From the NCBI GenBank assembly GCA_965277715.1, contig OZ255836.1, positions 32,001 to 96,000 of the forward strand: a DNA stretch of 64,000 nucleotides, in the 5' to 3' direction. The stretch's first letter is position 1. Every line of letters starts with the position of its first letter. The stretch is from Gammaproteobacteria bacterium (lineage in GTDB: Bacteria; Pseudomonadota; Gammaproteobacteria; JBCCGL01). The position numbers and the translations under genes are program-made. Below the pieces are notes generated by a model, which was given only the letters and a program-made list of their open reading frames with translations, had not been told where the DNA came from and ran no database searches. Of this stretch, positions 1 to 10,588 are shown piece by piece.

Positions 1-164
1 GGGCTTTTATCTGCTGTAACGCTAATAATATGTAGTGTAAAGTTTTCTTGATTATATTTTAACTAATGCCTTAACGTTTATATTAAGAAAATTTCGCTGC
101 AGTAGAAAATTAACTAGTGATGGTTCATTTTAAAAGCTGGCAATGCATAAGGTTCTAGTTGATC

Positions 165-1310
165 GGGTATGACCTTAATTTGATGTTGTATTTAAGCGGC
201 GATAGGCAAACCAAATTGACCGACCTTTTGCCAAAACTGCTGCCATCTGCCAGTACTATAGTTTATGCAGCGTAAACCTAACACGGCTGCCGCCCCTTTT
301 TCTTTCCACTTCATTGCACAACCACATAACCGTTGTTTCACAATCACCTTGCAAGCCGCTTCCGTTACACCCGAACCAATGGGTAAGCTATTTTTTACAT
401 TATGAGCATATTTCATCTTATCTTTGTTGTTTGTAAAATAGGTGATAACAGAATTAAGGGCATTTCGTTTCTCTTTCGATAGATCACTGTTATTGCCAAA
501 AGCCACCATTTCGTTCAGTAACCGCGTTGCCGAACCCACACAGTGCTTTAGCTTATGGCAAGATTGATCAAGCCATTCACTCCTATCTAACGCGTTTCTT
601 TTTCCATGAAACATCACATGAGCGGCTTTTCCAAGGTATTCGCTCACATGCCAAAAGTCGATTGTTTGGGTATGAGTATGTCGCTTTAAAAAAGGCCAAT
701 TACATTTCGCACCATCAGCAATTCCTACATAGTGGGCATCAGAGTAGTACTTCTTTACTTTGATGATCGCCTGTTCAAAACGCCCCAAAAAGGTCTCCTT
801 GCCATACTCAGGCGTAGCCGCCATATAGGTGGTATGTTGTCTATCACCCTTTTTGTCATAAAAAGCAATGGTGCCCACCATTGCTTCACGATAGCCTTCA
901 TTGCAAAGCAGCATACAAGTACCATCCATCCCTATCGATACCGTTTTCACCGGATAGGCCATCTTGGGCAGCTCATCGTTCCACTGTGCTTCCTTAGCCG
1001 TAACCACCGCACTCACCGCCTCAGCGATATCTTGTATAAAACAACGTGCCACTTTCCTACTATGGTTTTCTTCAAGGTCAGCTCTAACACGCGATGCACC
1101 AAGGTCGGCATATTTTGAAGAGACCATCTTGGCAAATTTGGGGGTCGAGGAAATGATAATACGGGCATTGGCATCAACAGGGCAATACGTCTTTCCCCCT
1201 TTTGAACCTTGATAAACAGGGCGTTGTATATCTACTGCTCCATAAGGCGTTTGATATATTTTTGATTCTTTACCCTTGCTGGTAAATTTAGTGCTGCCCA
1301 CTATTATAGG
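165..1310 (-). mobile_element. ISKra4/ISLre2-like (IS256 superfamily) element, 5'-truncated by the IS4-like insertion at 1311
   Basis: ORF 192..1364 has DGT, ADGA..W, DFWH and PIGSGVTEAACKVIVKQRL motifs. Its first ~18 codons come from the neighbouring IS end. Putative terminus GGGTATGACC at 165-174. Confidence 0.75.
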
Positions 1311-2861
1311 CATGGGTGTACCACTAGAATCTTGCCAGGAAGCTAATAACGCAATGAATAACACCTGAAAAGAGCCGCCATAAGCTACAAATAGTATTTT
1401 TTATAATATTTGTACTGTTTTTTTATAAACCGATAACAAGCTTTATAATTAATAAAATAAATAAAATTATCTAAAAAAAACACTTGAATTCACCAGCAGA
1501 ATTTTTTTTAAAATACCCATTTAATATCTGATTAAATGGGCAAATTGAATATGAACGAAATGATGACCGTTGAAGAATATATCACCGAACACTGTAAAAT
1601 AAGTATGGAAAAAGCAATTGCTGCTGAACGCTTCCCTTTATGGAAAAGATCATGCGATTCCATTGATGACGTAGCTTTTTCTCGACATGGGTTACTTCAC
1701 TGTATAAGTCTTGTACATAGTGGTCGTCACTATCTACAGGTTACGGATGAAATATACGACGAGACAATTTGTCATTCAAGCTATTTTAACGCATTGAAGT
1801 CGACAAGACGGATGAAGATGATGCAAGCCATGGAAAAGCAAAGCTATCAACTGCAAAGTGAGAAATTATCTTCTTTGGACATTGATTATTTAAAACAATT
1901 TCCTGAACTTGAAGAATATCGAGTAGAAGCAGCTGATGGTCATTTTATACAGCATGCTTGTCACACAGAGAAAAATCGTCAGGGCAACGTCTTCGCAGCA
2001 GGCTTTATTCATGCCTTGAACCTCAGAAATGGACTTCTAAGACCACTTTGTGTCGTGACTAACGGTACTGAACGACACCAGGAAATACCCGCGTTACGTT
2101 CTTATATTGAACAACGTTGTGGCGAAAAAGAGACTTGGCAAAAGCATCTCTATATATACGATAAGGCGGTGACTGATTATGCATGGTGGGAAAAACAAAA
2201 ACAGCATCAGAATTTTATGATTTCAGTACTCAAAGAAAATGCAGTTGCAACTTTTGTCAACTCTATACCCTATGACCAGGGTAGTGAAATTAATACAGGG
2301 GTTGAAGGCTATAGTGTATATAAAAATAAAAAGGTCCAATTTCATATTGTTAAATACCGCGACCCAGAAACAGGTCAATTACATCAATTTATTTCAACGC
2401 TACCAGAGTCAATTAACCAAGGCACTATTGCTATGCTCTATTACAAGCGTTGGACGATAGAAAAATCATTCAACAATAGTAAAAGTGATTTCACCGAAAG
2501 AAAAGCCTGGTCTTCAAACCTGAATGCGCTGAACAGTCAAATGCGTTTTACTGCTATGGCCTATAATATCATGCGTATTTTTGAAGAAACATCAAAAACA
2601 AAGAACCTGGACTGTATTCATCCATCTGATAAAAAATACACTAAAATACACTAAAATGCTTGATAAGAGACAACAAATTGCCCAGAAAAAAGGCGGCTTT
2701 GTTAATCCATTGTTTTTTTACGCTAGAATTACCCGTATATGCTCATTCACCATCCGCTCTCTGCAAAATGCAATAATGACAAGAAAGTCCCTTAGAACTA
2801 TTATGCATAGCTTAGTGAGGCATTTAAAACCTCGACAGCCAGGAATTTTGAAACACTGATG
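1311..2861 (+). mobile_element. IS4-like element, copy 1
   Basis: Ends CATGGGTGTACC... and ...GAAACACTGATG recur at 12520/15752 and 48874/47326. The flanks do not form a TSD. Confidence 0.85.
1536..2654 (+). CDS. IS4-family DDE transposase (372 aa), ended early by a 10-bp duplication; the natural tail runs to 2859
   Basis: ADGH / YDKA / YYKRWTIEKSF (YREK-like) motifs. AAAATACACT x2 at 2633-2652. Confidence 0.8.
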   Translation: MGKLNMNEMMTVEEYITEHCKISMEKAIAAERFPLWKRSCDSIDDVAFSRHGLLHCISLVHSGRHYLQVTDEIYDETICHSSYFNALKSTRRMKMMQAMEKQSYQLQSEKLSSLDIDYLKQFPELEEYRVEAADGHFIQHACHTEKNRQGNVFAAGFIHALNLRNGLLRPLCVVTNGTERHQEIPALRSYIEQRCGEKETWQKHLYIYDKAVTDYAWWEKQKQHQNFMISVLKENAVATFVNSIPYDQGSEINTGVEGYSVYKNKKVQFHIVKYRDPETGQLHQFISTLPESINQGTIAMLYYKRWTIEKSFNNSKSDFTERKAWSSNLNALNSQMRFTAMAYNIMRIFEETSKTKNLDCIHPSDKKYTKIH

Positions 2862-2956
2862 ACCATGTTAGTAAAACTGCAATGGTCCCTGTGTGTCAAC
2901 CTCACCTCAAGCCACTATGATTTAAGTTAACATCTAAATCAGGGCAGCTATCGAGA

Positions 2957-3379
2957 GTGAGAACAATGCCAAAACCAATGTTAGATAAACCACAACCTGA
3001 GTCATGTGAGATCAAGCCTGATCGGACACTTGAGAAAAAGACTCGCCGCACTTTTACAGCAGCCTATAAGCTAAAGATGATCAATCAAGCTGATGCTTGC
3101 CAGCATGGACAGCTTGGCGCTTTGCTACGCCGTGAGAAGCTTTACTCCAATCAATTGTCTCAGTGGCGAAGAGAACTGGCCGAAGGCGGTTTGTCAGGGC
3201 TATCAAAAAGCGCGCCCGGCCCTGCACCGCAAATGACGTCTGAGCAGCGCCGGATAGCGCAGCTTGAAAAACAAGTAAACCGTCTGGAAAAACAAATCGC
3301 CCTTAAGGATGACTGTCTGGAACTCCAAAAAAAAGCCTTGGCGATGCTCGACCGATTGAACAGCGGGATCGAGCAGTGA
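2957..3379 (+). CDS. IS3-like transposase OrfA (HTH)
   Basis: RRTFTAAYKL..LLRREKLYSNQLSQWR. A8 slippery run near the 3' end. Overlaps orfB. Confidence 0.85.
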   Translation: MRTMPKPMLDKPQPESCEIKPDRTLEKKTRRTFTAAYKLKMINQADACQHGQLGALLRREKLYSNQLSQWRRELAEGGLSGLSKSAPGPAPQMTSEQRRIAQLEKQVNRLEKQIALKDDCLELQKKALAMLDRLNSGIEQ

Positions 3380-4455
3380 ATACCGCGTTGACTGACCGCC
3401 CACCCTCAGTGTCCCAACGTCTGGCTTGTAAGGTATTGGCATTGTCACGGTCACACGTCCGGGCCAAGCAAAGCCGCCGCCATTTCTGTGGCCCTCCCAA
3501 ACCAGCAGGAACCGTGCGAATCACTTGCCATCAGCCACGCCAACTGAGTGAAGAAGAATGCTCTGTGGTATTGAATACGCTCAATAGTGAAGCGTTCTAT
3601 GATCAACCACCGGCGCAGGTTTACCATACCTTGCTGAGTCGCCGTATTTACCTCTGCTCCATCAGCACCATGCACCGCCTGCTGCGTCAGTCCGATCAGT
3701 CGGGGGAACGCCGAAAACAGCGTCCTGGGCAAACCAACGCAGTGCCAAGGCTTTCGGCCAGTCAGCCTAATGAGGTCTGGACATGGGATATTACAAAATT
3801 GGCCACCGTTAAGCGCGGCGTTTATTTATCGCTCTATGTGGTGATGGATTTATTCAGTCGCTACATCGTGGCCTGGATGCTTTCCCATAAAGAAAACAGT
3901 GCACTGGCACAGCAGCTCATTCAGGAGGCCAGTACACGTTACGCGATTAGACCCGACCAGCTGACGCTGCATCAGGATCGAGGGGCACCGATGACCGCAC
4001 ATTGCTACCTTGACTTACTGGGCGAGTTGGCGGTCACCGCTAGCCACAGCAGACCCCGCGTGAGTAATGACAATCCTCATAGTGAAAGCCAATTTCGAAC
4101 ACTGAAGTATCAGCCTGACTACCCGCGTCGCTTTGATAGCTATAGCCATGCCAATGGATGGTGCACTGAGTATATTGATTGGTATAACCATCAGCACTGT
4201 CACAGTGCGTTGGAGGGCTTCACACCTTGTCAGGTGTTTACTGGGCAGTACATACCACTCAGTGAGGTTCGTCAGCAGGCACTCAATGAAAAGTATGTCC
4301 AACATGCAGAGCGATTTGTCAATCAGCGGCCTGTTGTCAGGATGCCGCCTGCGAAGGTCTACATTAATCCCGTGCGCGATGAACTGGGTAATATAGATCA
4401 CGATGCACCCGTCAACTTCCCAACACTAAATCGGGCTAAATATATGGTAACTTGA
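3376..4455 (+). CDS. IS3-like transposase OrfB (rve integrase core)
   Basis: WTWDIT, HQDRG, SNDNPHSESQF DDE motifs. Confidence 0.9.
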   Translation: MNTALTDRPPSVSQRLACKVLALSRSHVRAKQSRRHFCGPPKPAGTVRITCHQPRQLSEEECSVVLNTLNSEAFYDQPPAQVYHTLLSRRIYLCSISTMHRLLRQSDQSGERRKQRPGQTNAVPRLSASQPNEVWTWDITKLATVKRGVYLSLYVVMDLFSRYIVAWMLSHKENSALAQQLIQEASTRYAIRPDQLTLHQDRGAPMTAHCYLDLLGELAVTASHSRPRVSNDNPHSESQFRTLKYQPDYPRRFDSYSHANGWCTEYIDWYNHQHCHSALEGFTPCQVFTGQYIPLSEVRQQALNEKYVQHAERFVNQRPVVRMPPAKVYINPVRDELGNIDHDAPVNFPTLNRAKYMVT

Positions 4456-4489
4456 GTAACTGTGGCTTGAAACAGGTTGACACCTTCCG

Positions 4490-4925
4490 GTTGGGTGTGA
4501 TACCTTCGTTTAGCAGGCCATCGGTAAGCGATGATAATCCTTATTCAGAAAGTCTGTTTAGAACCTTAAAATACACGCCTGCCTATCCGTCAAAGCCATT
4601 TGATAGTTTAGCCTCTGCCCGAAACTGGGTGCATGGATTTGTGCAATGGTATAACGACTCTCATTGCCATAGCGGCATTGGGTTTGTGACACCAACCTCA
4701 CGTCATAAAGGCGAAGATCACGCGATACTGGCAGCCAGAAAAGCAGTTTATGAACAAGCAAAGGCCAAACACCCTGAACGCTGGAGCCAGGATATTAAAC
4801 ACCTCGAACCGGTATCGGGGGTGTGGTTAAACCCGGAAAAGGAAGGCTTGGCCATGAGACAAAAGCATAATGGAATTGAAAAGCAAGTAGCACAGTAAAA
4901 CGGACAACTACCTTGACAAACACCG
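4490..4925 (+). mobile_element. 3' remnant of IS3-like element A
   Basis: Near-identical to the reverse complement of 13322-13757. Ends GGACAACTACCTTGACAAACACCG. Confidence 0.85.
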
Positions 4926-5054
4926 ATGCGTACATACTGCACGTCCTTAATCATATCGGCAGTGCCGATACTCTTGAAAAGATAGAGGCCTTGCTACCTT
5001 GGCATGTCGGTTTGGACATTACCGGGGAATAGAGGCTGATTTAAGGGCGCTTAC
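4926..5054 (+). mobile_element. IS66 right-end fragment (tnpC 3' end and IR)
   Basis: Matches the reverse complement of 10567-10695. Ends GGCGCTTAC (GTAAGCGCC IR). Confidence 0.85.
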
Positions 5055-5110
5055 TCTAAATGGGTATCTACACCGACAATAATTTCACCTTTTTGAAGAG
5101 CGAATTTCAT
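5055..5110 (-). pseudogene. N-terminal stub of an IS110-family recombinase, cut by IS66
   Basis: ATG at 5110 with GAGGTG RBS. Encodes MKFALQKGEIIVGVDTHL, matching the first catalytic GxD strand of the DEDD RuvC domain. Confidence 0.75.
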
Positions 5111-5124
5111 GGGTTCACCTCATT

Positions 5125-5300
5125 AATTATGAAGCATTACCAATCCCATTCGTTGGACAGGACACTCATGATGCAATACAAAGCTCCTATTAGGTCACAG
5201 ACTCTGGGCCCGGAAACGCTCGGGGAACACCAATACTGATCGACAGGTCAACGCAAAGACAAAAAAGCCAATCCCAGCACAGGTCAGATCAGCAGGGTAT
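5125..5300 (-). ncRNA. Putative IS110 bridge RNA in the non-coding left end (boundaries approximate)
   Basis: Stem/internal-loop/hairpin with guide TGCTGGGAT identical to the flanking target. A second loop carries TGAGTGT, complementary to the element's own end. Confidence 0.7.
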
Positions 5301-5322
5301 TCTCAAGCATAGTAGGCTGAGT

Positions 5323-5994
5323 ATCCCAGCAATTGCCTTTGCGGCTCATACTTTGAATAATATGGTGTTGTTTTAGTAAGCGGGGATGGTGATTAGAGGC
5401 ATACTGGCAGCCACGATCTGTGTGCCATAGCAGGCCAGCTTTGGGCTTACGCCGCCAAATAGCCATCAGCAATGCGTCATCCACCAGACTGGTTCTCATG
5501 TGTGATTGGATAGACCAACCCACTATTTGACGAGAGAACAGGTCAATCACGACGGCCAGGTAAAGCCAGCCCTGTTGCGTCCAGATGGAGGTAATGTCAC
5601 CAACATAACAGCGGTCAGGTTGTTCAACGGTGAAGGCTCGATTCAGATGATTGGGCGCAATGGGGTTATGGTGTTTGGAGTCTGTTGTCACTTTGAACTT
5701 ACGTTTGGTACGGCAACAAAGCCCTGCTTGTACCATGAGACGGCCTATTCGGCGGCGACTGATACGAACCCCTTCATTGGCAAACAAACGCTTTAAACGC
5801 CGGGTACCATAAGTCCCTCGTCCTTGCTCAAAAAAAACGTGCAGACGTTCTGTCAGCTGTTGATCTTCCTGATAGCGGGCTGTGGTGCATTGTTTTGACC
5901 ACGCATAATAGCCGCTACTGGAAACCGCCATAAAGCGACAAAGAGGTCGAACACCATAGCCAGATTGATGTTGCTGTATCCAGGCGTACTTCAC
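5323..5994 (-). pseudogene. IS3 OrfB, truncated before the catalytic E
   Basis: GDIT, HTDRG, SMSRKGNCWD, then foreign sequence. Confidence 0.85.
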
Positions 5995-6278
5995 GCTTGT
6001 TCCTTGGCAAAGTACGCGGCCGCCTTTTTTAACAGGTCGCGTTCCTCTTTCAAACGCGCGTTTTCTTTTTTCAACCGTTTGAGTTCATCATATAAGTGCT
6101 CATCGCTGTGGCCACTGCCATCCGCTTTCGGTTGGCTATACTTGCTGATCCAGGTATGCAAAGTATTCTCGTTCACGCCCAGTTCGCGTGCGGTCGCGGC
6201 TATAGGCTGGTCGTTTTTCAGGACTAATTTAACCGCTGACTCTCTAAAATCAGCCGTATAGGGTTGCTTCTCTTTCAT
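5991..6278 (-). CDS. IS3 OrfA
   Basis: YTADFRESAVKLV..ARELGV..TLHTW..LLKKAAAYFAK. Confidence 0.9.
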   Translation of the reverse strand: MKEKQPYTADFRESAVKLVLKNDQPIAATARELGVNENTLHTWISKYSQPKADGSGHSDEHLYDELKRLKKENARLKEERDLLKKAAAYFAKEQA

Positions 6279-6543
6279 TTTCGGTTCCTCGCGTAAACTC
6301 GGTTTACTTCAAGTGAGGGGTCCGAATTAGTGTAGCCACATCACAACCACCGTTACCAAATCAACAAGACGACAGAGATAAACGTTGAAAACCAGTCGAA
6401 AGTGCATGGTTTGTAGCATTTTGGCTGTATGGTTGACGCTATGACTGATTGGCATAGTGAGACGGTATAGAAATACTTTCCTCTACATACAACGCTTTAC
6501 AGCAGGCGTAGAAAAAACGTGCTGTTCATCCACTTAACAAATC

Positions 6544-6578
6544 TATAATATAAGACTGACACTTAACCAACGGAGGTG
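6544..6578 (+). promoter_or_regulatory. Putative -10 box and RBS of the small H-NS-like gene
   Basis: TATAAT at 6544-6549 and GGAGGTG at 6572-6578. Confidence 0.45.
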
Positions 6579-6582
6579 TGAG

Positions 6583-6759
6583 ATGAAATCTTATGACGAG
6601 TTGAAAGCTGAAATGGAAGCAATTCAGCAGCAGATGGTTGAAGCAAAGAAGAACGAACGTGCTAATGCATTGAAAGAGGTAAAGCGTCTTTGCAAAGAGT
6701 TTGGCTTTACTGCTGGGATGCTGAAAGGCGCGCTTGCTGAAGGCAGGAAGAAGCAATGA
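6583..6759 (+). CDS. 58-aa H-NS-like protein, oligomerisation domain only (missing from the ORF track)
   Basis: MKSYDELKAEMEAIQQQMVEAKKNERANALKEVKRLCKEFGFTAGMLKGALAEGRKKQ. Strong RBS. ATGA overlap with the next gene. Confidence 0.7.
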   Translation: MKSYDELKAEMEAIQQQMVEAKKNERANALKEVKRLCKEFGFTAGMLKGALAEGRKKQ

Positions 6760-7715
6760 AATACGAATATTTAAATTTCTTAAAATGCCCAGTAACAGAA
6801 GAAGAGTTAGAGTTAGATGTGTATGAAGAGCATAAGGGAGAGATACTAAGTGGTAAGCTCTACTCGTCAAAATCTGACTTTCCAATTATTAATGGTATTC
6901 CAAGATTCGTGAAAAATGAGGGTTATTCTGATAACTTTGGTTGGCAGTGGAATCATTGGGCGAAAGTTCAATTTGAGTGCGAGAATACTGGTAGACCAAT
7001 GGCTGGTTATACAACAAAAATGTTTAAAGCTATTACTGAATTAACAAGTGAAAAATTACAAGATAAAACGATTCTCGACATTGGTTGTGGTCCGGGTAGG
7101 TTCGTGGATGTCTCCAGAACATTAGGTGCAAAATTAGTCATAGCATTAGATTATTCTACAGCGATTGATGCTGCAAAAGAGAACTTTGAGGACGCTACAG
7201 GAATTTTCTTTGTGCAAGGTGATGCATTAAATCTTCCTTTTAAAGAAGGAGTGTTTGACTTTGTCTACAGCATAGGCGTGCTACATCATACACCTAGCCC
7301 AATTAAAGGTGTTCAAGAAGCTGCTAGAGTATTAAAAAAAAGCGGCGAGTTCGCAATCTCTGTTTATAAAAAAGGGGGCTATTACGACTTTGTCACAGTA
7401 CAAATGTGGCGTATATTGTTCAAATCGTTGTGGCCAATATTTGGACACAGATTACCTTACGTTTACTCTCAATTTTTTGGAAGAACAAATCACTATATTC
7501 GCCGCTATTCACGAATTTTAAGTCTTCCGATTAGGCTAATTTTTCCATCAGTAACTTTGCCAGATGTTAGATGGAGTGTCTTAGATACCTTTGATAGTGT
7601 CACACCATCTTATCAATCTGCTCATACCGTTTATGAAGTCTATTCCTGGTTTAAAAAAATGGATTTTATAGATATAAGAGTCGCTGCTTGGGAGAACATC
7701 ATAGGAAGAAAATAG
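6756..7715 (+). CDS. Class I SAM-dependent methyltransferase with an N-terminal Trm112-like segment
   Basis: LKCPVT..FPIINGIPRF, ILDIGCGPG, GDALNLPF, SIGVLHHT. AT-rich. Confidence 0.85.
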   Translation: MKYEYLNFLKCPVTEEELELDVYEEHKGEILSGKLYSSKSDFPIINGIPRFVKNEGYSDNFGWQWNHWAKVQFECENTGRPMAGYTTKMFKAITELTSEKLQDKTILDIGCGPGRFVDVSRTLGAKLVIALDYSTAIDAAKENFEDATGIFFVQGDALNLPFKEGVFDFVYSIGVLHHTPSPIKGVQEAARVLKKSGEFAISVYKKGGYYDFVTVQMWRILFKSLWPIFGHRLPYVYSQFFGRTNHYIRRYSRILSLPIRLIFPSVTLPDVRWSVLDTFDSVTPSYQSAHTVYEVYSWFKKMDFIDIRVAAWENIIGRK

Positions 7716-7766
7716 GTTGATACAGAATGTTAAATTTTCAGCGATACCTATACTGTGGATGAGTGA

Positions 7767-8063
7767 GTGGTACGACAGCCAAAAAAGAAGCTACGTGGCA
7801 ACTTCCGTAAGTTGATACAAGGACGAATAGAAAAAGCTATTCCACGTCATACACTTACAGCTGAAGAAAAAAGTCGGTTAGCTAAACTTAAAGCTATAGC
7901 TGCAAGATTGAGCGTGGGGAAAACGTGCAAAACCGTCAGCTGCAAACTTGGCTAAGTGAAGACGAGTACGCACAGATAGAAGTTGAGTTGCAAGAACAAC
8001 GGAAACTACGTGAAGAACTAAAAGATAAGCCAAGCGGCTTAAAACGCTATGAAGAAAAGCTTA
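7767..8063 (+). pseudogene. Frameshifted, IS-truncated hypothetical gene
   Basis: The ORF shifts frame near 7910 and continues RGENVQNRQLQTWLSEDEY..RYEEKL until the IS1595 end. Confidence 0.45.
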
Positions 8064-8223
8064 CCTAATTACCACTCAAGCTAAGCCTATTTTTCAGCAT
8101 TTTTTCAGTCATAGGTGGTGTTCTTAATGCCACATAGAAGAACCGGGGGAGTATATCTTTAAGTGAAAATCGCCGATTAAACCGGTACTGAAAGTCAGCA
8201 AGGTAGCGCTGAGCATATTTTGG
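8064..8223 (-). mobile_element. IS1595-family 3' fragment
   Basis: KYAQRYLADFQYRFNRRF C-terminal motif. End CCTAATTACCA. Confidence 0.7.
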
Positions 8224-8445
8224 AAGTTCAAACTTGATCTGACAGTTACCCAATTTTCAGTGACTGACTGTCAGCTTAAGTTTAGTTCAACAACTTAAGT
8301 TTCCAGATTGATTTACCGTCGATAAGAGTTTCCATCGGGGTTCTACCGCAGCACACTTTATCTTGGTGGGTTCGCTGAGTATTGTACTTGATTAATCATT
8401 CGTCAAGATCAACTTGAAGTTCCTCCATACTTTGATAGATTTTTC

Positions 8446-9763
8446 GGTTCTTCCCCGATTATTGTGAAGCCACCGGTTCCCTATCCAGCTTTCCGCAGTA
8501 AAACAAGATACTCCGCCGGTAACTTTCAAACGAACGAAATCCTCTTGCATTCGATTTGACTGTCTGAATTTTTGAATTCAAACCCTCTGACACGGCATTA
8601 CTTATTGTGTGCTTAAACCATGTCAATATGTTCGGCATGTGCGTTTTTATCATCTTGGCCACTTTCTTTATGCTGTCCAATCGGCACCGAATTGCCCATG
8701 AATACCACTCGTCAAAGAAACGCTTTGCCCAACCCGCTGTCTTATACGTCCAAAAATCACGAAACAGTTCTTTTATCGCCCAGGCTCGGGCTGTCAATAA
8801 CTGATCATGCTTGAGTGACTCAAAGTGCTCGGCTGCTTTGTCAGACAAATTTTCTTCGTTTTTTAACCAGTGATAACGACTCTTTTTCAACCGGGTATCG
8901 CCCTGTGACAAAAGGTCTCTATGTTTATCACGACGGACCTGATCCACCGCCTTATTCAGGTGTTGGCTAATATGAAAACGGTCGTGAACAATCGCACTGT
9001 CTGACAGTTTTACCTCAACGGCATTAATGAACGCAGGCCACCTATCAATCGCGACAGCTTTCACCTGTTCTCGCTGGTTATCCGTCAGCGCAACCTCCAA
9101 CGCCTCCTCACAAGCTGCCTGGGTGTGATCTTTCACTCCATCCAATACTCGCCCTCCATCGATATCATTGATGAGCGTCACATAGTCATGCCCTTTACGG
9201 TGGGACTTCTCATCAATACCCAGGTACTCAATTGTCACCAATTCCCGACGCGAAAGTCCCCGCTCGACAGCGCGGGCTTTGATGGCTTCCACTGCGTTCC
9301 AGCTAAGTCCCAGTAACTTACGCGCCTCTTCGACGCTACGTGAGGCTTGCAACACCCTGATGGAAAATAATTCAAACAACAACGTAAAACGACTGCGCTT
9401 GCTTGCCCAGGGTAACACCATACTTTTAACACCATGCTCCAGACAATTTACTCGGGGAATGCGACTGTGTAGACGCGTTTCAAACTGCATAGTATCCAGG
9501 TGTCTCCAGGATCGCTCTTGTGAACGGTGATCATAGAACGGACTCACTTCGCCACAGTGCGAACAAGGGCCGTGGTTGCCGCTAAATGCCAACGAAATGG
9601 ATACTTTTAACCCTGAAGGGTCTAAATCAACTGATGTCACTGACCAATCATCTGTCAGACCCAGGAGCTGGCTGTAGTGTTCTTCAAGGCTCGATAGCAC
9701 CGGAGTCTCTCAATAGCAAAGGGAGATGAAATACTATAACCTCACACAAACCGGGGAGGAACC
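8446..9763 (-). mobile_element. ISL3-family element, apparently complete
   Basis: IRs GGTTCTTCCCCGATT / GGTTCCTCCCCGGTT. TSD GATTTTTC / GATTTTTT. Confidence 0.9.
8459..9700 (-). CDS. ISL3 transposase
   Basis: Zn finger C-x2-C, GIDE, DRFH, SNAVSEGLN..ARGFR. Confidence 0.9.
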   Translation of the reverse strand: MLSSLEEHYSQLLGLTDDWSVTSVDLDPSGLKVSISLAFSGNHGPCSHCGEVSPFYDHRSQERSWRHLDTMQFETRLHSRIPRVNCLEHGVKSMVLPWASKRSRFTLLFELFSIRVLQASRSVEEARKLLGLSWNAVEAIKARAVERGLSRRELVTIEYLGIDEKSHRKGHDYVTLINDIDGGRVLDGVKDHTQAACEEALEVALTDNQREQVKAVAIDRWPAFINAVEVKLSDSAIVHDRFHISQHLNKAVDQVRRDKHRDLLSQGDTRLKKSRYHWLKNEENLSDKAAEHFESLKHDQLLTARAWAIKELFRDFWTYKTAGWAKRFFDEWYSWAIRCRLDSIKKVAKMIKTHMPNILTWFKHTISNAVSEGLNSKIQTVKSNARGFRSFESYRRSILFYCGKLDREPVASQ

Positions 9764-10588
9764 GATTTTTTTACGCAAAGTGATCTGATCAAACTCGTTC
9801 AAAATAGTCTTGTGGAATCGTTCGCAAATACCGTTGGTCTGAGGTGACTTGATCTTGGTTTTAGTGTGTTCAATATCATTCAGAGCCATATAAAGCTGAT
9901 AATCATGTTGATCCGCACGCCCACAATACTCGGTGCCTCTATCGGTCATAATTCGCAGCATAGGAAGGCTGTGTTCTTCGTAGAACGCCAGCACCTGATC
10001 ATTGAGTATATCCGCTGCGGTAATAGGAGTTTTGGTCGTATAGAGTTTGGCATGGGCTACCTTGCTATAAGTATCCACAAACGTTTGTTGATAAACACGA
10101 CCAATGCCCTTAAAGGTGCCAACGTAATACGTATCTTGAGAGCCTAGATACCCTGGATAGGCAGTTTCTATTTCACCACAAACCTCATCATCGTCTTTCT
10201 TTCGCTCCATGGCGGCGACCTGTGATTCGGTCAGAATCAAACCCTCTGAGGCCACTTTTTCACAAAGCGCTTTTAAGCGATGTTTAAAACAGGCTAGACC
10301 ATGCCGTAGCCAGATACCTCGCACACCACTAGTGTGATACAAAAATTCCCCGTTTACGTCATTCATTACTGGTGCGAGTTTGCCCATGAGCGGGTTCTTC
10401 AAGTGCAGAGTCCAACACGACATTTTCAATGCTCGGATCAACACGGTTTTTGAGGGTGGGGCTACGTCGATTACGATCCAATAATGCTTCAACTCCTCCT
10501 TCATCGTTAGCGGCTTTGTAGCGATAAAAGGTATCGCGTGATAAGCCCATCATTTTGCAGGCTTTCGTAAGCGCCCTTAAATCAGCCT

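Follow-up and report, generated by a model that had tools for sequence, protein, structure and literature searches.

A proteobacterial IS110-group lineage, represented by a truncated left end in an IS3-family transposase gene, whose predicted guide RNA very probably directs insertion at the C-W-D^N codons of IS3 transposases

Within the window (the whole stretch of DNA analyzed, 64,000 nucleotides), minus-strand positions 5055-5322 are occupied by the left end of an insertion sequence of the IS110 group, made up of 212 nt of non-coding DNA and 18 recombinase codons. It sits in sense orientation in the orfB gene of an IS3-family element, directly after the C-W-D codons. The locus carries the following features (^ marks the insertion point here and below).

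4452..5054, plus strand: end of another IS3-like element (rve_3 fragment at 4452-4898, Pfam); its terminus at 5054 truncates the IS110
5055..5110, minus strand: first 18 codons of a predicted DEDD recombinase (..GVDTHL); homology ends at 5055
5111..5322, minus strand: IS110 non-coding left end (212 nt), predicted source of the bridge (seek) RNA; homologous left end in 76 loci
5134..5219, minus strand: predicted donor-binding domain, two covarying stems around the donor loop (consensus fold, pair counts)
5160..5168, minus strand: right donor guide TGAGT, complementary to ACTCA of the left end and followed by GT and CC; GT pairs with target AY and CC with target GG
5183..5190, minus strand: left donor guide ATAGGAGC, equal to bases -11..-4 of the family right end ..ATAGGAGCGTC
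5225..5302, minus strand: predicted target-binding domain (consensus fold, pair counts): an outer stem GAATACC/GGTGTTC and a second stem CTGATC/GATCAG around an internal loop that holds both target guides, with GGC-T6-GTC as inner hairpin
5247..5255, minus strand: right target guide TGCGTT (complement of AACGCA), then GAC, which complements the GTC ending the family right end
5271..5279, minus strand: left target guide TGCTGGGAT, in the same sense as the target top strand and pairing with the bottom strand, a layout as in IS621
5309..5314, minus strand: TACTAT, a -10-like hexamer at left-end positions 9-14; the promoter would be complete only in the circular form, with the right-end TTGACA
5323..5331, minus strand: left target half (LT plus positions 8-9), TGCTGGGAT, the Cys-Trp-Asp codons; most relatives have the same flank or TGTTGGGAY
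5323..5994, minus strand: IS3-family orfB, N-terminal part only, ending ..SRKGNCWD (Pfam rve 2-102/102 and HTH_21)
5991..6278, minus strand: IS3-family orfA of the host element, 95 aa (ORF list; Pfam HTH_Tnp_1, E 2.4e-16)

The reading frame and the Pfam matches of orfA and orfB agree with the original prediction, made from this DNA, that an IS3 orfB ends in ..G-N-C-W-D at the IS110 junction. According to tblastn, the C-terminal part of orfB (N-x-x-x-E...) is absent from the window. Near-identical uninterrupted IS3 copies from sequencing runs X2 and X3 read TGGGAT-AACAGC (N-S) and not the TGGGATAACGC that had been expected of intact copies. The empty site in these runs is TGCTGGGAT^AAC.., with no duplication. 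Because the local IS3 continues AACAGC, only three of the five right-target bases would pair with the window guide.

The start codon of MKFALQKGEIIVGVDTHLE lies at 5110..5108 (minus strand), and the 18 window codons align to the N-terminus of the recombinases of relatives, which at full length carry PF01548 and PF02371 (Pfam), the DEDD (RuvC-like) and Transposase_20 domains of IS110-group recombinases. At 5055, contigs of runs X2, X3 and X6 run on into the recombinase gene, and loose ends at 5054/5055 are seen in several sequencing runs; run X1 contains the junction of the window itself. The remainder of the window IS110 was lost when another IS came to end at 5054. Since it has neither recombinase nor right end, the window copy is immobile; it is a dead relic in an IS-rich region. 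No further copies of the element (blastn) and no more recombinase pieces (tblastn) were found within the 64-kb window, and an exact-pattern scan of metagenome contigs for the window's own element gave no match.

Public genomes yielded 76 loci with an alignable left end which, together with the window, trace back to 72 separate insertion events. IS3 sequence lies on both sides in 47 of these events, reading GNCWD^N[AS]xx[E/T/Q], and is recognizable on one side in another 11. In G-N-C-W-D^N-(A/S), the insertion point separates the Asp codon from the Asn codon and lies five codons before the catalytic Glu. In 4/4 loci tested with Pfam, the rve profile is matched to its end on the left, and the right flank begins at rve_3 position 16 or rve_2 position 1. 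These flanks and profile matches bear out the earlier proposal that the target consists of the C-W-D^N-A codons of IS3 transposases. Reading D^N across the flanks, no codon is gained or lost and there is no target duplication. The right flank is AACGC or AATGC in 49 of 65 events of the lineage. In eight events neither flank reads as IS3. Seven of these are look-alike sites, whose left flank agrees with the target guide at 6-9 of nine bases, and an AACGC-like right flank is also kept at five of the seven. Such sites include L016 (TGCTGAGAT^AACGC), L025 (TGCTCGGAT^..) and L048 (TGCTGGGAT^AACTA). Relatives of the lineage occur in 291 plasmid records and in 173 confirmed stretches of species-representative genomes. 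Among the fetched loci, the left end is split by other insertions in L017 and L045 only.

The 65-sequence consensus fold has 96.3% of its cells paired, against 90.9 +/- 0.2 in shuffles (0/500 reach it, in a test that ignores the kinship of the copies) and 34.5-42.9% in slid controls. Compensatory changes were found in 26 of its 47 pairs. They occur in helices 1, 2 and 5 of the target-binding domain and in 11 of the 16 pairs of helices 6 and 7 of the donor-binding domain. Taken alone, the window RNA is unexceptional (MFE -53.6 kcal/mol; z = -1.68; 15/200 shuffles reach a fold as good), and an Rfam search with it returned nothing relevant at E up to 10. The case for the predicted structure is thus made by covariation and not by the window fold alone. 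Together with the left ends of relatives, this covarying fold supports the original prediction that this is an IS110 left end whose bridge RNA has two loops. On rechecking the coordinates, all strings that it named were present at their minus-strand positions: the outer stem CTGATC (5292..5287) with GATCAG (5241..5236), TGCTGGGAT in the flank (5331..5323) and in the loop (5279..5271), and, as strings, TGCGTT (5255..5250), TGACCTAAT (5197..5189) and TGAGTGT (5168..5162).

Four guide segments match the left target, the right target, the right end and the left end, and co-vary with them. In the window, the left flank is identical to the target-loop 5' arm at 9/9 bases, and the right junction is absent from the window copy. 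As this copy has no right end and no right junction, two of the four pairings are read from relatives alone. Counting Watson-Crick and wobble pairs, seven of the nine positions of the left target guide each pair in 63-66 of 67 events, with position 3 (C) mismatched in 28/67, and the right target guide pairs in 54-61 of 62 events at right-target positions 1-5. The right guide makes 285 Watson-Crick pairs versus 263 when guides are permuted among events (0/10,000 permutations reach the observed count), and the left guide 520 versus 513 (73/10,000), with kinship ignored in both tests. Two relatives are retargeted: L080 has the guide AGCTACGAT and the flank AGTTACGAT, and L087 the guide TGTAATGAT and the flank TGTAATGAC. 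Window strings and the pairing in relatives therefore uphold the predicted target loop, in which the 5' arm equals the 9-nt flank and the 3' arm complements AACGC(A).

On the donor side, the window strings confirm pairing of TGAGT(GT) with the bases that open the element (ACTCAG, the right-donor half). Compensatory changes in the right donor guide and left end occur in L013 (TGAGAGT / TCTCAG), L014 (TAAGTGT / ACTTAG) and also L036. The other donor claims had to be revised. The right end, which had been expected to finish ..TGACCTAAT, is ..GACATAGGAGCGTC, ending GCGTC, in 69/69 events having a right end. The donor-loop 5' guide is not TGACCTAAT but ATAGGAGC (5190..5183), immediately 3' of the string first chosen. 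A shared AT core was not found either: target positions 8-9 are AT in 37 events, AC in 30 and other in 2 (n=69), while donor positions 8-9, before the crossover, are TC in 69/69, and nothing is duplicated. The core readings 'YA' and 'A+1' were rejected because each would require a mixture of bases at one of the two junctions, which was not seen. Left-end positions 9-14 are YAnnAT in 71/71 hexamers counted (50 TAnnAT, 21 CAnnAT); the right end of relatives carries TTGACA, and the 18-nt spacing between the two was read from the sequences.

An IS110 member that targets IS3 transposases, ISEc21, has been described before (Siddiquee et al. 2024, Nat Commun, PMC11187229). For both ISEc21 and IS621, experiments demonstrate that the RNA is required and programmable (PMC11187229, PMC11208160, PMC11208158). 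The window element might accordingly be a mere copy of ISEc21 with the same target. Like ISEc21, it belongs to the IS110 group, has its predicted guide RNA encoded upstream of the recombinase gene, lies in a conserved stretch of an IS3-family transposase gene, shows no duplication on insertion and would make a promoter at the circle junction (PMC11187229). The two elements also have in common a right end that closes with ..GCGTC, preceded by a TTGAC box, and the motifs GACCTGTCG and CCTGTCC that flank the loops, and their four guides stand in the same register (AGAAGGGC in the ISEc21 loop and right end), each matching its own ends and flanks. However, all four guide sequences differ from those of the window lineage, the ISEc21 recombinase is 42.9-45.1% identical to those of the 4/4 lineage members compared, and its left end has no blastn match to that of the window. 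L086, the locus named for ISEc21 by the paper and annotated as 'IS110-like element ISEc21 family transposase', sits at ..VMFHSD^QGSQY (second catalytic Asp), 31 codons upstream of C-W-D in the window orfB. The E. coli copies of the window lineage are annotated merely as generic 'IS110 family transposase'. With the window element and 47/72 events at CWD^N(A/S), and with recombinase identity of 42.9-45.1%, the lineage falls outside the ISEc21 clade, and a mere copy of ISEc21 is very improbable. ISMch6, compared here by description, belongs to the ISEc21 clade and not to the window lineage because its recombinase is reported to be 72% identical to that of ISEc21 (PMC11187229). In ISMch6, as in L080 and L087, a few base changes in the bottom-strand guide go with a changed flank (PMC11187229).

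The two remaining alternatives concern the role of the RNA. The window alone shows just a 9-nt direct repeat, whose copies at the junction and in the loop lie 52 nt apart, and these are two of three occurrences of TGCTGGGAT in the 64-kb window (0.53 expected; 3/100 shuffles reach 3). The loop/flank identity could thus be a by-product, a short IS3 piece duplicated or copied into the left end at insertion. The strongest argument against chance is comparative, as the flank/loop pair recurs in relatives from many genera. The loop string is kept in such copies even at non-IS3 sites, covarying stems enclose the internal loop that holds it, and retargeted relatives change loop and flank together. Nor would a duplication account for the opposite arm, which complements the target on its other side, and we regard a by-product as hardly credible. 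Insertion could also be directed by a recombinase protein recognizing DNA, or by recombination with IS3 sequences, with RNA complementarity minor at most. The frequent mismatch at left-guide position 3 and the 3/5 fit of the window right guide to the local IS3 would suit direction by protein or recombination, and covariation is limited because the target is highly conserved DNA. Yet the right guide and right flank co-vary beyond all 10,000 permutations, L080 and L087 change guide and flank together, and deletion or reprogramming of the ISEc21 and IS621 RNAs abolishes or redirects insertion (PMC11187229, PMC11208160, PMC11208158). We therefore consider it very unlikely that the RNA has so small a part.

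The best explanation, which we hold with high confidence, is that the IS110 left end in the window encodes a bridge (seek) RNA with two loops, and that this RNA guides a lineage widespread in proteobacteria into the C-W-D^N codons of IS3-family transposase genes. Anatomy, insertion sites, covariation and the absence of duplication were all seen in our analysis. As in IS621, the left end would be the source of the two-loop RNA, in each loop the 5' arm has the same sense as the DNA and would pair with the bottom strand, the 3' arm would pair with the top strand, the bases after the 3' arms would pair with partner DNA after strand exchange (handshake guides), and the top strand would be cut directly after position 9 (PMC11208160, PMC11208158). 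Unlike the lineage, IS621 targets REP elements (PMC11208160, PMC11208158), and its core, CT in donor and target, is strongly preferred (PMC11208160). Because positions 8-9 of the lineage are AY in targets but TC in the donor, only the pyrimidine at position 9 is shared. An identical core dinucleotide in donor and target, as in a strict IS621 type, was thus not found, and since the two bases before the crossover differ, the mechanism is not identical in detail to that of IS621.

Elements of the IS1111 group differ from the lineage in having the guide RNA downstream of the recombinase gene, subterminal inverted repeats, and non-coding structured sites rather than transposase codons as targets. 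Transposon terminal repeats are also targets of IS1111-group elements. Members of this wider family resemble the lineage in living inside other mobile DNA, for example at integron attC sites (PMC11187229). Our literature search, made outside supplementary files, found no paper describing a CWD^NA target; the motif may already be recorded in the target logos for ISfinder members that accompany Siddiquee et al., as supplementary figures and source data, or in Durrant et al. (Supplementary Data 2). In the portions available, two Ralstonia IS surveys mention IS110 in counts only, and a 2026 preprint on expanded IS110 loci leaves IS3 unmentioned.

RNA expression and chemistry are proposed here from published relatives. 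If the lineage behaves like IS621 and ISEc21, joining of the right end to the left end in a circular form would rebuild a TTGACA-N18-TAnnAT promoter that would express the RNA and the recombinase. The recombinase would bind the lineage RNA, as is known for ISEc21 and IS621 (PMC11187229, PMC11208160). The 5' arm of the donor loop (AUAGGAGC) would pair at the right end and its 3' arm (UGAGU) with the left end. GAC and GUCC, after the two 3' arms, complement partner DNA at the recombinant junctions, as handshake guides do. Insertion, in sense orientation, splits the IS3 integrase core.

A more extended reading is possible, though we lean slightly against it. The lineage would be a dedicated IS3-transposase parasite separate from ISEc21, at a second motif, C-W-D^N-A/S, so that two lineages divide the IS3 catalytic core. 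Its RNA would work without a shared dinucleotide core in an 'all-handshake' manner, the bases after both 3' arms pairing fully only with recombinant junctions. The guide would have U or G facing the third base of the Asp codon and of the Asn codon, and synonymous variants would therefore still pair by wobble. The sequencing runs, X1 and X6 around position 5215, also hint at recombinase-made internal deletions that would leave a 108-nt left-end scar in IS3 genes, with the scar joined to the C-terminal part of the IS3 gene; the fetched loci gave no true case of this scar form, and three chance-looking regex matches.

IS3 targeting itself was known from ISEc21; the present lineage adds a second, broadly distributed case at a different conserved IS3 motif. 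For bridge-recombinase engineering, it offers natural donor/target pairs that differ in the two bases before the cut, and natural guides whose wobble positions tolerate target variation. ISEc21 is not a single curiosity among RNA-guided IS110 elements that attack transposase genes of a different IS family. A conserved codon block in a multi-copy, dispensable and horizontally mobile gene is a safe and portable landing pad. Each insertion kills one IS3 copy, which bears on the mutual regulation of IS populations.

Read from the minus strand, every string and coordinate of the original prediction was correct. According to the ORF list and Pfam, positions 1-10500 of the window form a dense IS graveyard, in which we recognized the following features:

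1536-2654, IS4-like DDE transposase (ORF list and Pfam)
2957-4455, complete IS3-like orfA/orfB (ORF list and Pfam)
4452-4898, plus strand, end of another IS3-like element, a C-terminal rve_3 fragment (Pfam) below the cut at 5055
5110 to the cut at 5055, minus strand, IS110 recombinase open frame, reading MKFALQKGEIIVGVDTHLE and then a stop
5322..5111, minus strand, gene-free stretch of 212 nt
from 5994, minus strand, IS3-family orfB with HTH_21 and the rve integrase core (Pfam)
6278..5991, minus strand, IS3-family orfA with HTH_Tnp_1 (Pfam)
8459-9700, ISL3 transposase (ORF list and Pfam)
9734-10504, rve-domain ORF (ORF list and Pfam)

The IS3 homology of the interrupted orfB ends after ..S-R-K-G-N-C-W-D, whose final nine bases are TGCTGGGAT (5331..5323), and its second catalytic Asp (..W-H-T-D-R-G-C-Q-Y) precedes the C-W-D Asp by 31 residues. 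By blastn, the 277-nt stretch occurs only once in the window, where tblastn found neither additional IS110 recombinase pieces nor the C-terminal part that the IS3 orfB lacks. The window copy is a dead fragment.

Relatives were collected with a protein-pattern scan of species-representative genomes, which confirmed 173, the best 80 of them being retained; by blastn, the stretch matched 291 plasmid records. The left end could be aligned to that of the window in 76 of 83 loci, truncation or splitting having removed the anchor from the other 7, and these 76 loci together with the window represent 72 distinct insertion events. Full-length copies, such as L001 on an Aeromonas plasmid, begin with ACTCAG, encode a recombinase of ~350 aa (domains DEDD_Tnp_IS110 and Transposase_20) and terminate with a short right end, ..CTTGACATAGGAGCGTC. 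Two E. coli copies of the window lineage (L084 and L085), inserted between GNCWD and NSPMERFF, are annotated merely as "IS110 family transposase". A degenerate copy of the lineage, also located after GNCWD and without an annotated recombinase, is carried by L003 and ~140 Salmonella plasmid records; its guides have changed, to TGTACT for the right target and ACAGGAAC for the donor, and it is kept at about one position in many large plasmids.

We scored the left-flank translation as G-N-C-W-D with at most one substitution. Both flanks are IS3 in 47 of the 72 events (left G-N-C-W-D, right N-(A/S)-x-x-(E/T/Q)), and a single flank is IS3 in 11, the opposite one being short, absent or different. The remaining 14 consist of 5 events too short on both sides, 1 whose left flank is odd and whose right end is absent, and 8 with no IS3 reading on either side. 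Pfam analysis of four loci showed that rve runs to its last profile position in the left flank while the right flank begins at rve_3 position 16 or rve_2 position 1 (4/4 in each case), and no codon was gained or lost at the insertion in the four loci tested. In the relatives, the Glu of N-A-x-x-E lies 5 residues after the Asp of C-W-D. A DD(35)E spacing is known for this superfamily. The distances of 31 and 5 residues fit this spacing, and the element was therefore rightly placed just upstream of the catalytic Glu.

Seven of the 8 non-IS3 sites resemble the target in their left flank, with 6-9 of 9 bases matching the guide, and in 5 of these 7 the right flank is still AACGC-like. Among them are TGCTGAGAT followed by AACGC, TGTTGAGAC by AGCGC, CTCTGGGGC by AACGC and TGCTGGGAT by AACTA. 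Such look-alike sites are expected if insertion is guided by sequence and not by gene. A single Mycoavidus MAG has at least 10 loci (L016-L026) carrying one identical element, several of them at non-IS3 look-alike sites; these several are natural off-target insertions. A few junctions are unusual. The left junction of a Halomonas locus (L062), TGTTGGGA-GCGTC-ACTCAG, contains five bases of the right end moved to the left side, and its right junction, ..ATAGGAGC-GCACCG, has neither GTC nor the AAC codon, as though recombination had been shifted or secondary. L002/L054 and L030 have IS3 on the right, but on the left a degenerate string resembling a right end (..CATAGGAGCCGTAC and ..GATAGGAGGAC) takes its place before the left end and may be what is left of tandem or nested copies.

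The guides of the window lineage were read by the IS621 definition. In each IS621 loop (PMC11208160 and PMC11208158), the same-sense 5′ arm pairs with the bottom strand and the 3′ arm with the top strand, which is cut after position 9; once strands have been exchanged, the bases past the 3′ arms pair with the partner DNA. The 5′ arm of the target loop is TGCTGGGAT in 65/72 events. At seven of its nine positions, the left target guide pairs with the left flank in 63-66 of 67 events; at position 9, the third base of the Asp codon, the pair is Watson-Crick in 35 events and a U-G wobble in 31, and position 3, third in the Cys codon, has a mismatch in 28/67. For the 3′ arm, pairing with the right flank at positions 1-5 is seen in 54-61 of 62 events; at position 3, third in the Asn codon, 40 pairs are Watson-Crick and 17 are G-T wobbles. 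When guides were permuted among events, ignoring kinship, the right guide count of 285 Watson-Crick pairs (permuted mean 263) was reached in 0/10,000 permutations and the left guide count of 520 (permuted 513) in 73/10,000. For example, guides predicting AAYACA adjoin the N-S codons AATAG or AACAG. By these counts, guide and flank co-vary.

Two retargeted relatives, in which guide and flank changed together, are clearer evidence of this co-variation than the permutation counts. A Massilia copy has guide AGCTACGAT and flank AGTTACGAT. L087, a solo left-end fragment without recombinase gene on Ralstonia megaplasmids (~2460-2640), has guide TGTAATGAT and flank TGTAATGAC, and the bases past its right donor guide are altered to match the new target. 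The central interpretation, that an IS110 bridge RNA is aimed at codons of IS3 transposases, is supported. A run of 14 nt past the donor loop of L087 is complementary to the entire left junction; 87 of the plasmid records matched by blastn are from Ralstonia.

The stretch is also present in sequencing runs labelled sponge metagenome, and contigs of four runs (X1, X2, X3 and X6) were compared with the window. One X1 contig repeats the 5054/5055 junction without difference, i.e. the truncated form, while contigs of X2, X3 and X6 extend past 5055 into the recombinase continuation ..L-D-V-H-V-G-A-V-I-N-H, and longer copies therefore exist in related populations. X2 and X3 also contain uninterrupted IS3 contigs (2-3 differences in 379 nt) in which TGCTGGGAT passes directly into AACAGCGTGGCTGAAAGC (W-D-N-S-V-A-E-S); this is a scarless empty site at 5322/5323. 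It reads AACAG, which refutes AACGC as the local right target and pairs with the window guide at 3/5 bases. For comparison, pairing of four bases, including the core, is reported for the IS621 right guide (PMC11208160 and PMC11208158). In X1 and X6, one contig each joins left-end base 108 (..CCCCGAGCGTT, end 5215) straight to AATAGTGTTGCAGAAAGC (N-S-V-A-E-S), and summed contig depth is higher over 5210-5345 than over 5074-5209. This join has the appearance of an internal deletion that starts at a string within the left end resembling a right end and extends to the true right junction, with the cut in its normal position. The deletion may have been made by the recombinase, leaving a 108-nt scar that carries the target loop only; a search of the fetched relative loci gave no confirmation of this form.

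The donor side differs from what had been proposed. Neither TGACCTAAT as donor guide nor ..TGACCTAAT as right end holds, as the right end is ..GACATAGGAGCGTC in 69/69 events having one; the left donor guide consists of the eight bases that follow, ATAGGAGC (5190..5183), which are the same as bases -11 to -4 of the right end. The complementarity of the donor 3′ arm TGAGT to the left-end start ACTCA was borne out, and left ends TCTCAG (L013) and ACTTAG (L014) are compensated by guides TGAGAGT and TAAGTGT. The AT core was correctly positioned but is not shared: the two bases before the crossover, belonging to the target Asp codon, are AT in 37, AC in 30 and other in 2 of 69 left junctions, whereas the right junction always has TC, the donor sequence. 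Past the right target guide stands GAC, the complement of the donor's GTC; past the right donor guide stand GU, complementary to AY of the target, and then CC, complementary to its GG. As a result, each 3′ arm has full complementarity to a recombinant junction, which is the IS621 handshake logic (PMC11208160 and PMC11208158). The position-9 pyrimidine alone can pair on both substrates. All junctions match top-strand exchange products. This would fit the unligated, mismatched bottom strand reported for IS621 products and the predominant single-strand excision described in a preprint abstract.

When 65 distinct left ends were aligned, their consensus fold had two stem-loop domains. Standard pairs occupy 96.3% of cells, compared with 90.9 +/- 0.2 in shuffles (0/500 reach it) and 34.5-42.9% with slid partners, and two-sided changes affect 26/47 pairs, compared with 14.3 +/- 1.8 and 9-15, respectively. 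Compensatory changes fall in the stems enclosing both internal loops (helices 1, 2, 6 and 7); the predicted CTGATC/GATCAG stem is helix 2 and GGC-T6-GTC the inner hairpin of the first loop. Folded singly, the window sequence is unremarkable (z = -1.68) and no Rfam family matches its RNA, so that the case for structure rests on covariation.

According to Siddiquee et al. (2024, PMC11187229), ISEc21, of the IS110 family, needs RNA from its upstream non-coding region, and its insertion is reprogrammable and occurs without duplication. In the E. coli locus named for it (L086, 530-2064), we found ISEc21 in an IS3 transposase gene, between ..V-M-F-H-S-D and Q-G-S-Q-Y; this site is the second catalytic Asp. 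In the right flank of this locus, the C-W-D motif is intact, 28 codons beyond the insertion. ISEc21 ends with ..AGAAGGGCGTC on the right and begins with AGTAAT on the left. Its recombinase shares 42.9-45.1% identity with four members of the window lineage, and its left end has no blastn match to theirs. The four guide segments nevertheless stand in one register, beside common conserved motifs, and each ISEc21 segment matches ISEc21's own flanks and ends, which amounts to cross-clade covariation for all four pairings. Our literature search found no paper describing the target of the window lineage, although the supplementary target logos of PMC11187229 and Durrant et al. may contain it. Since the ISEc21 work on IS3 targeting is in print, the general idea is not new, having been published in 2024. 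The window element belongs to a lineage other than that of ISEc21: ISEc21 uses the site between HSD and QGSQY, whereas the target of the window lineage is a second IS3 motif, located 31 codons further downstream.
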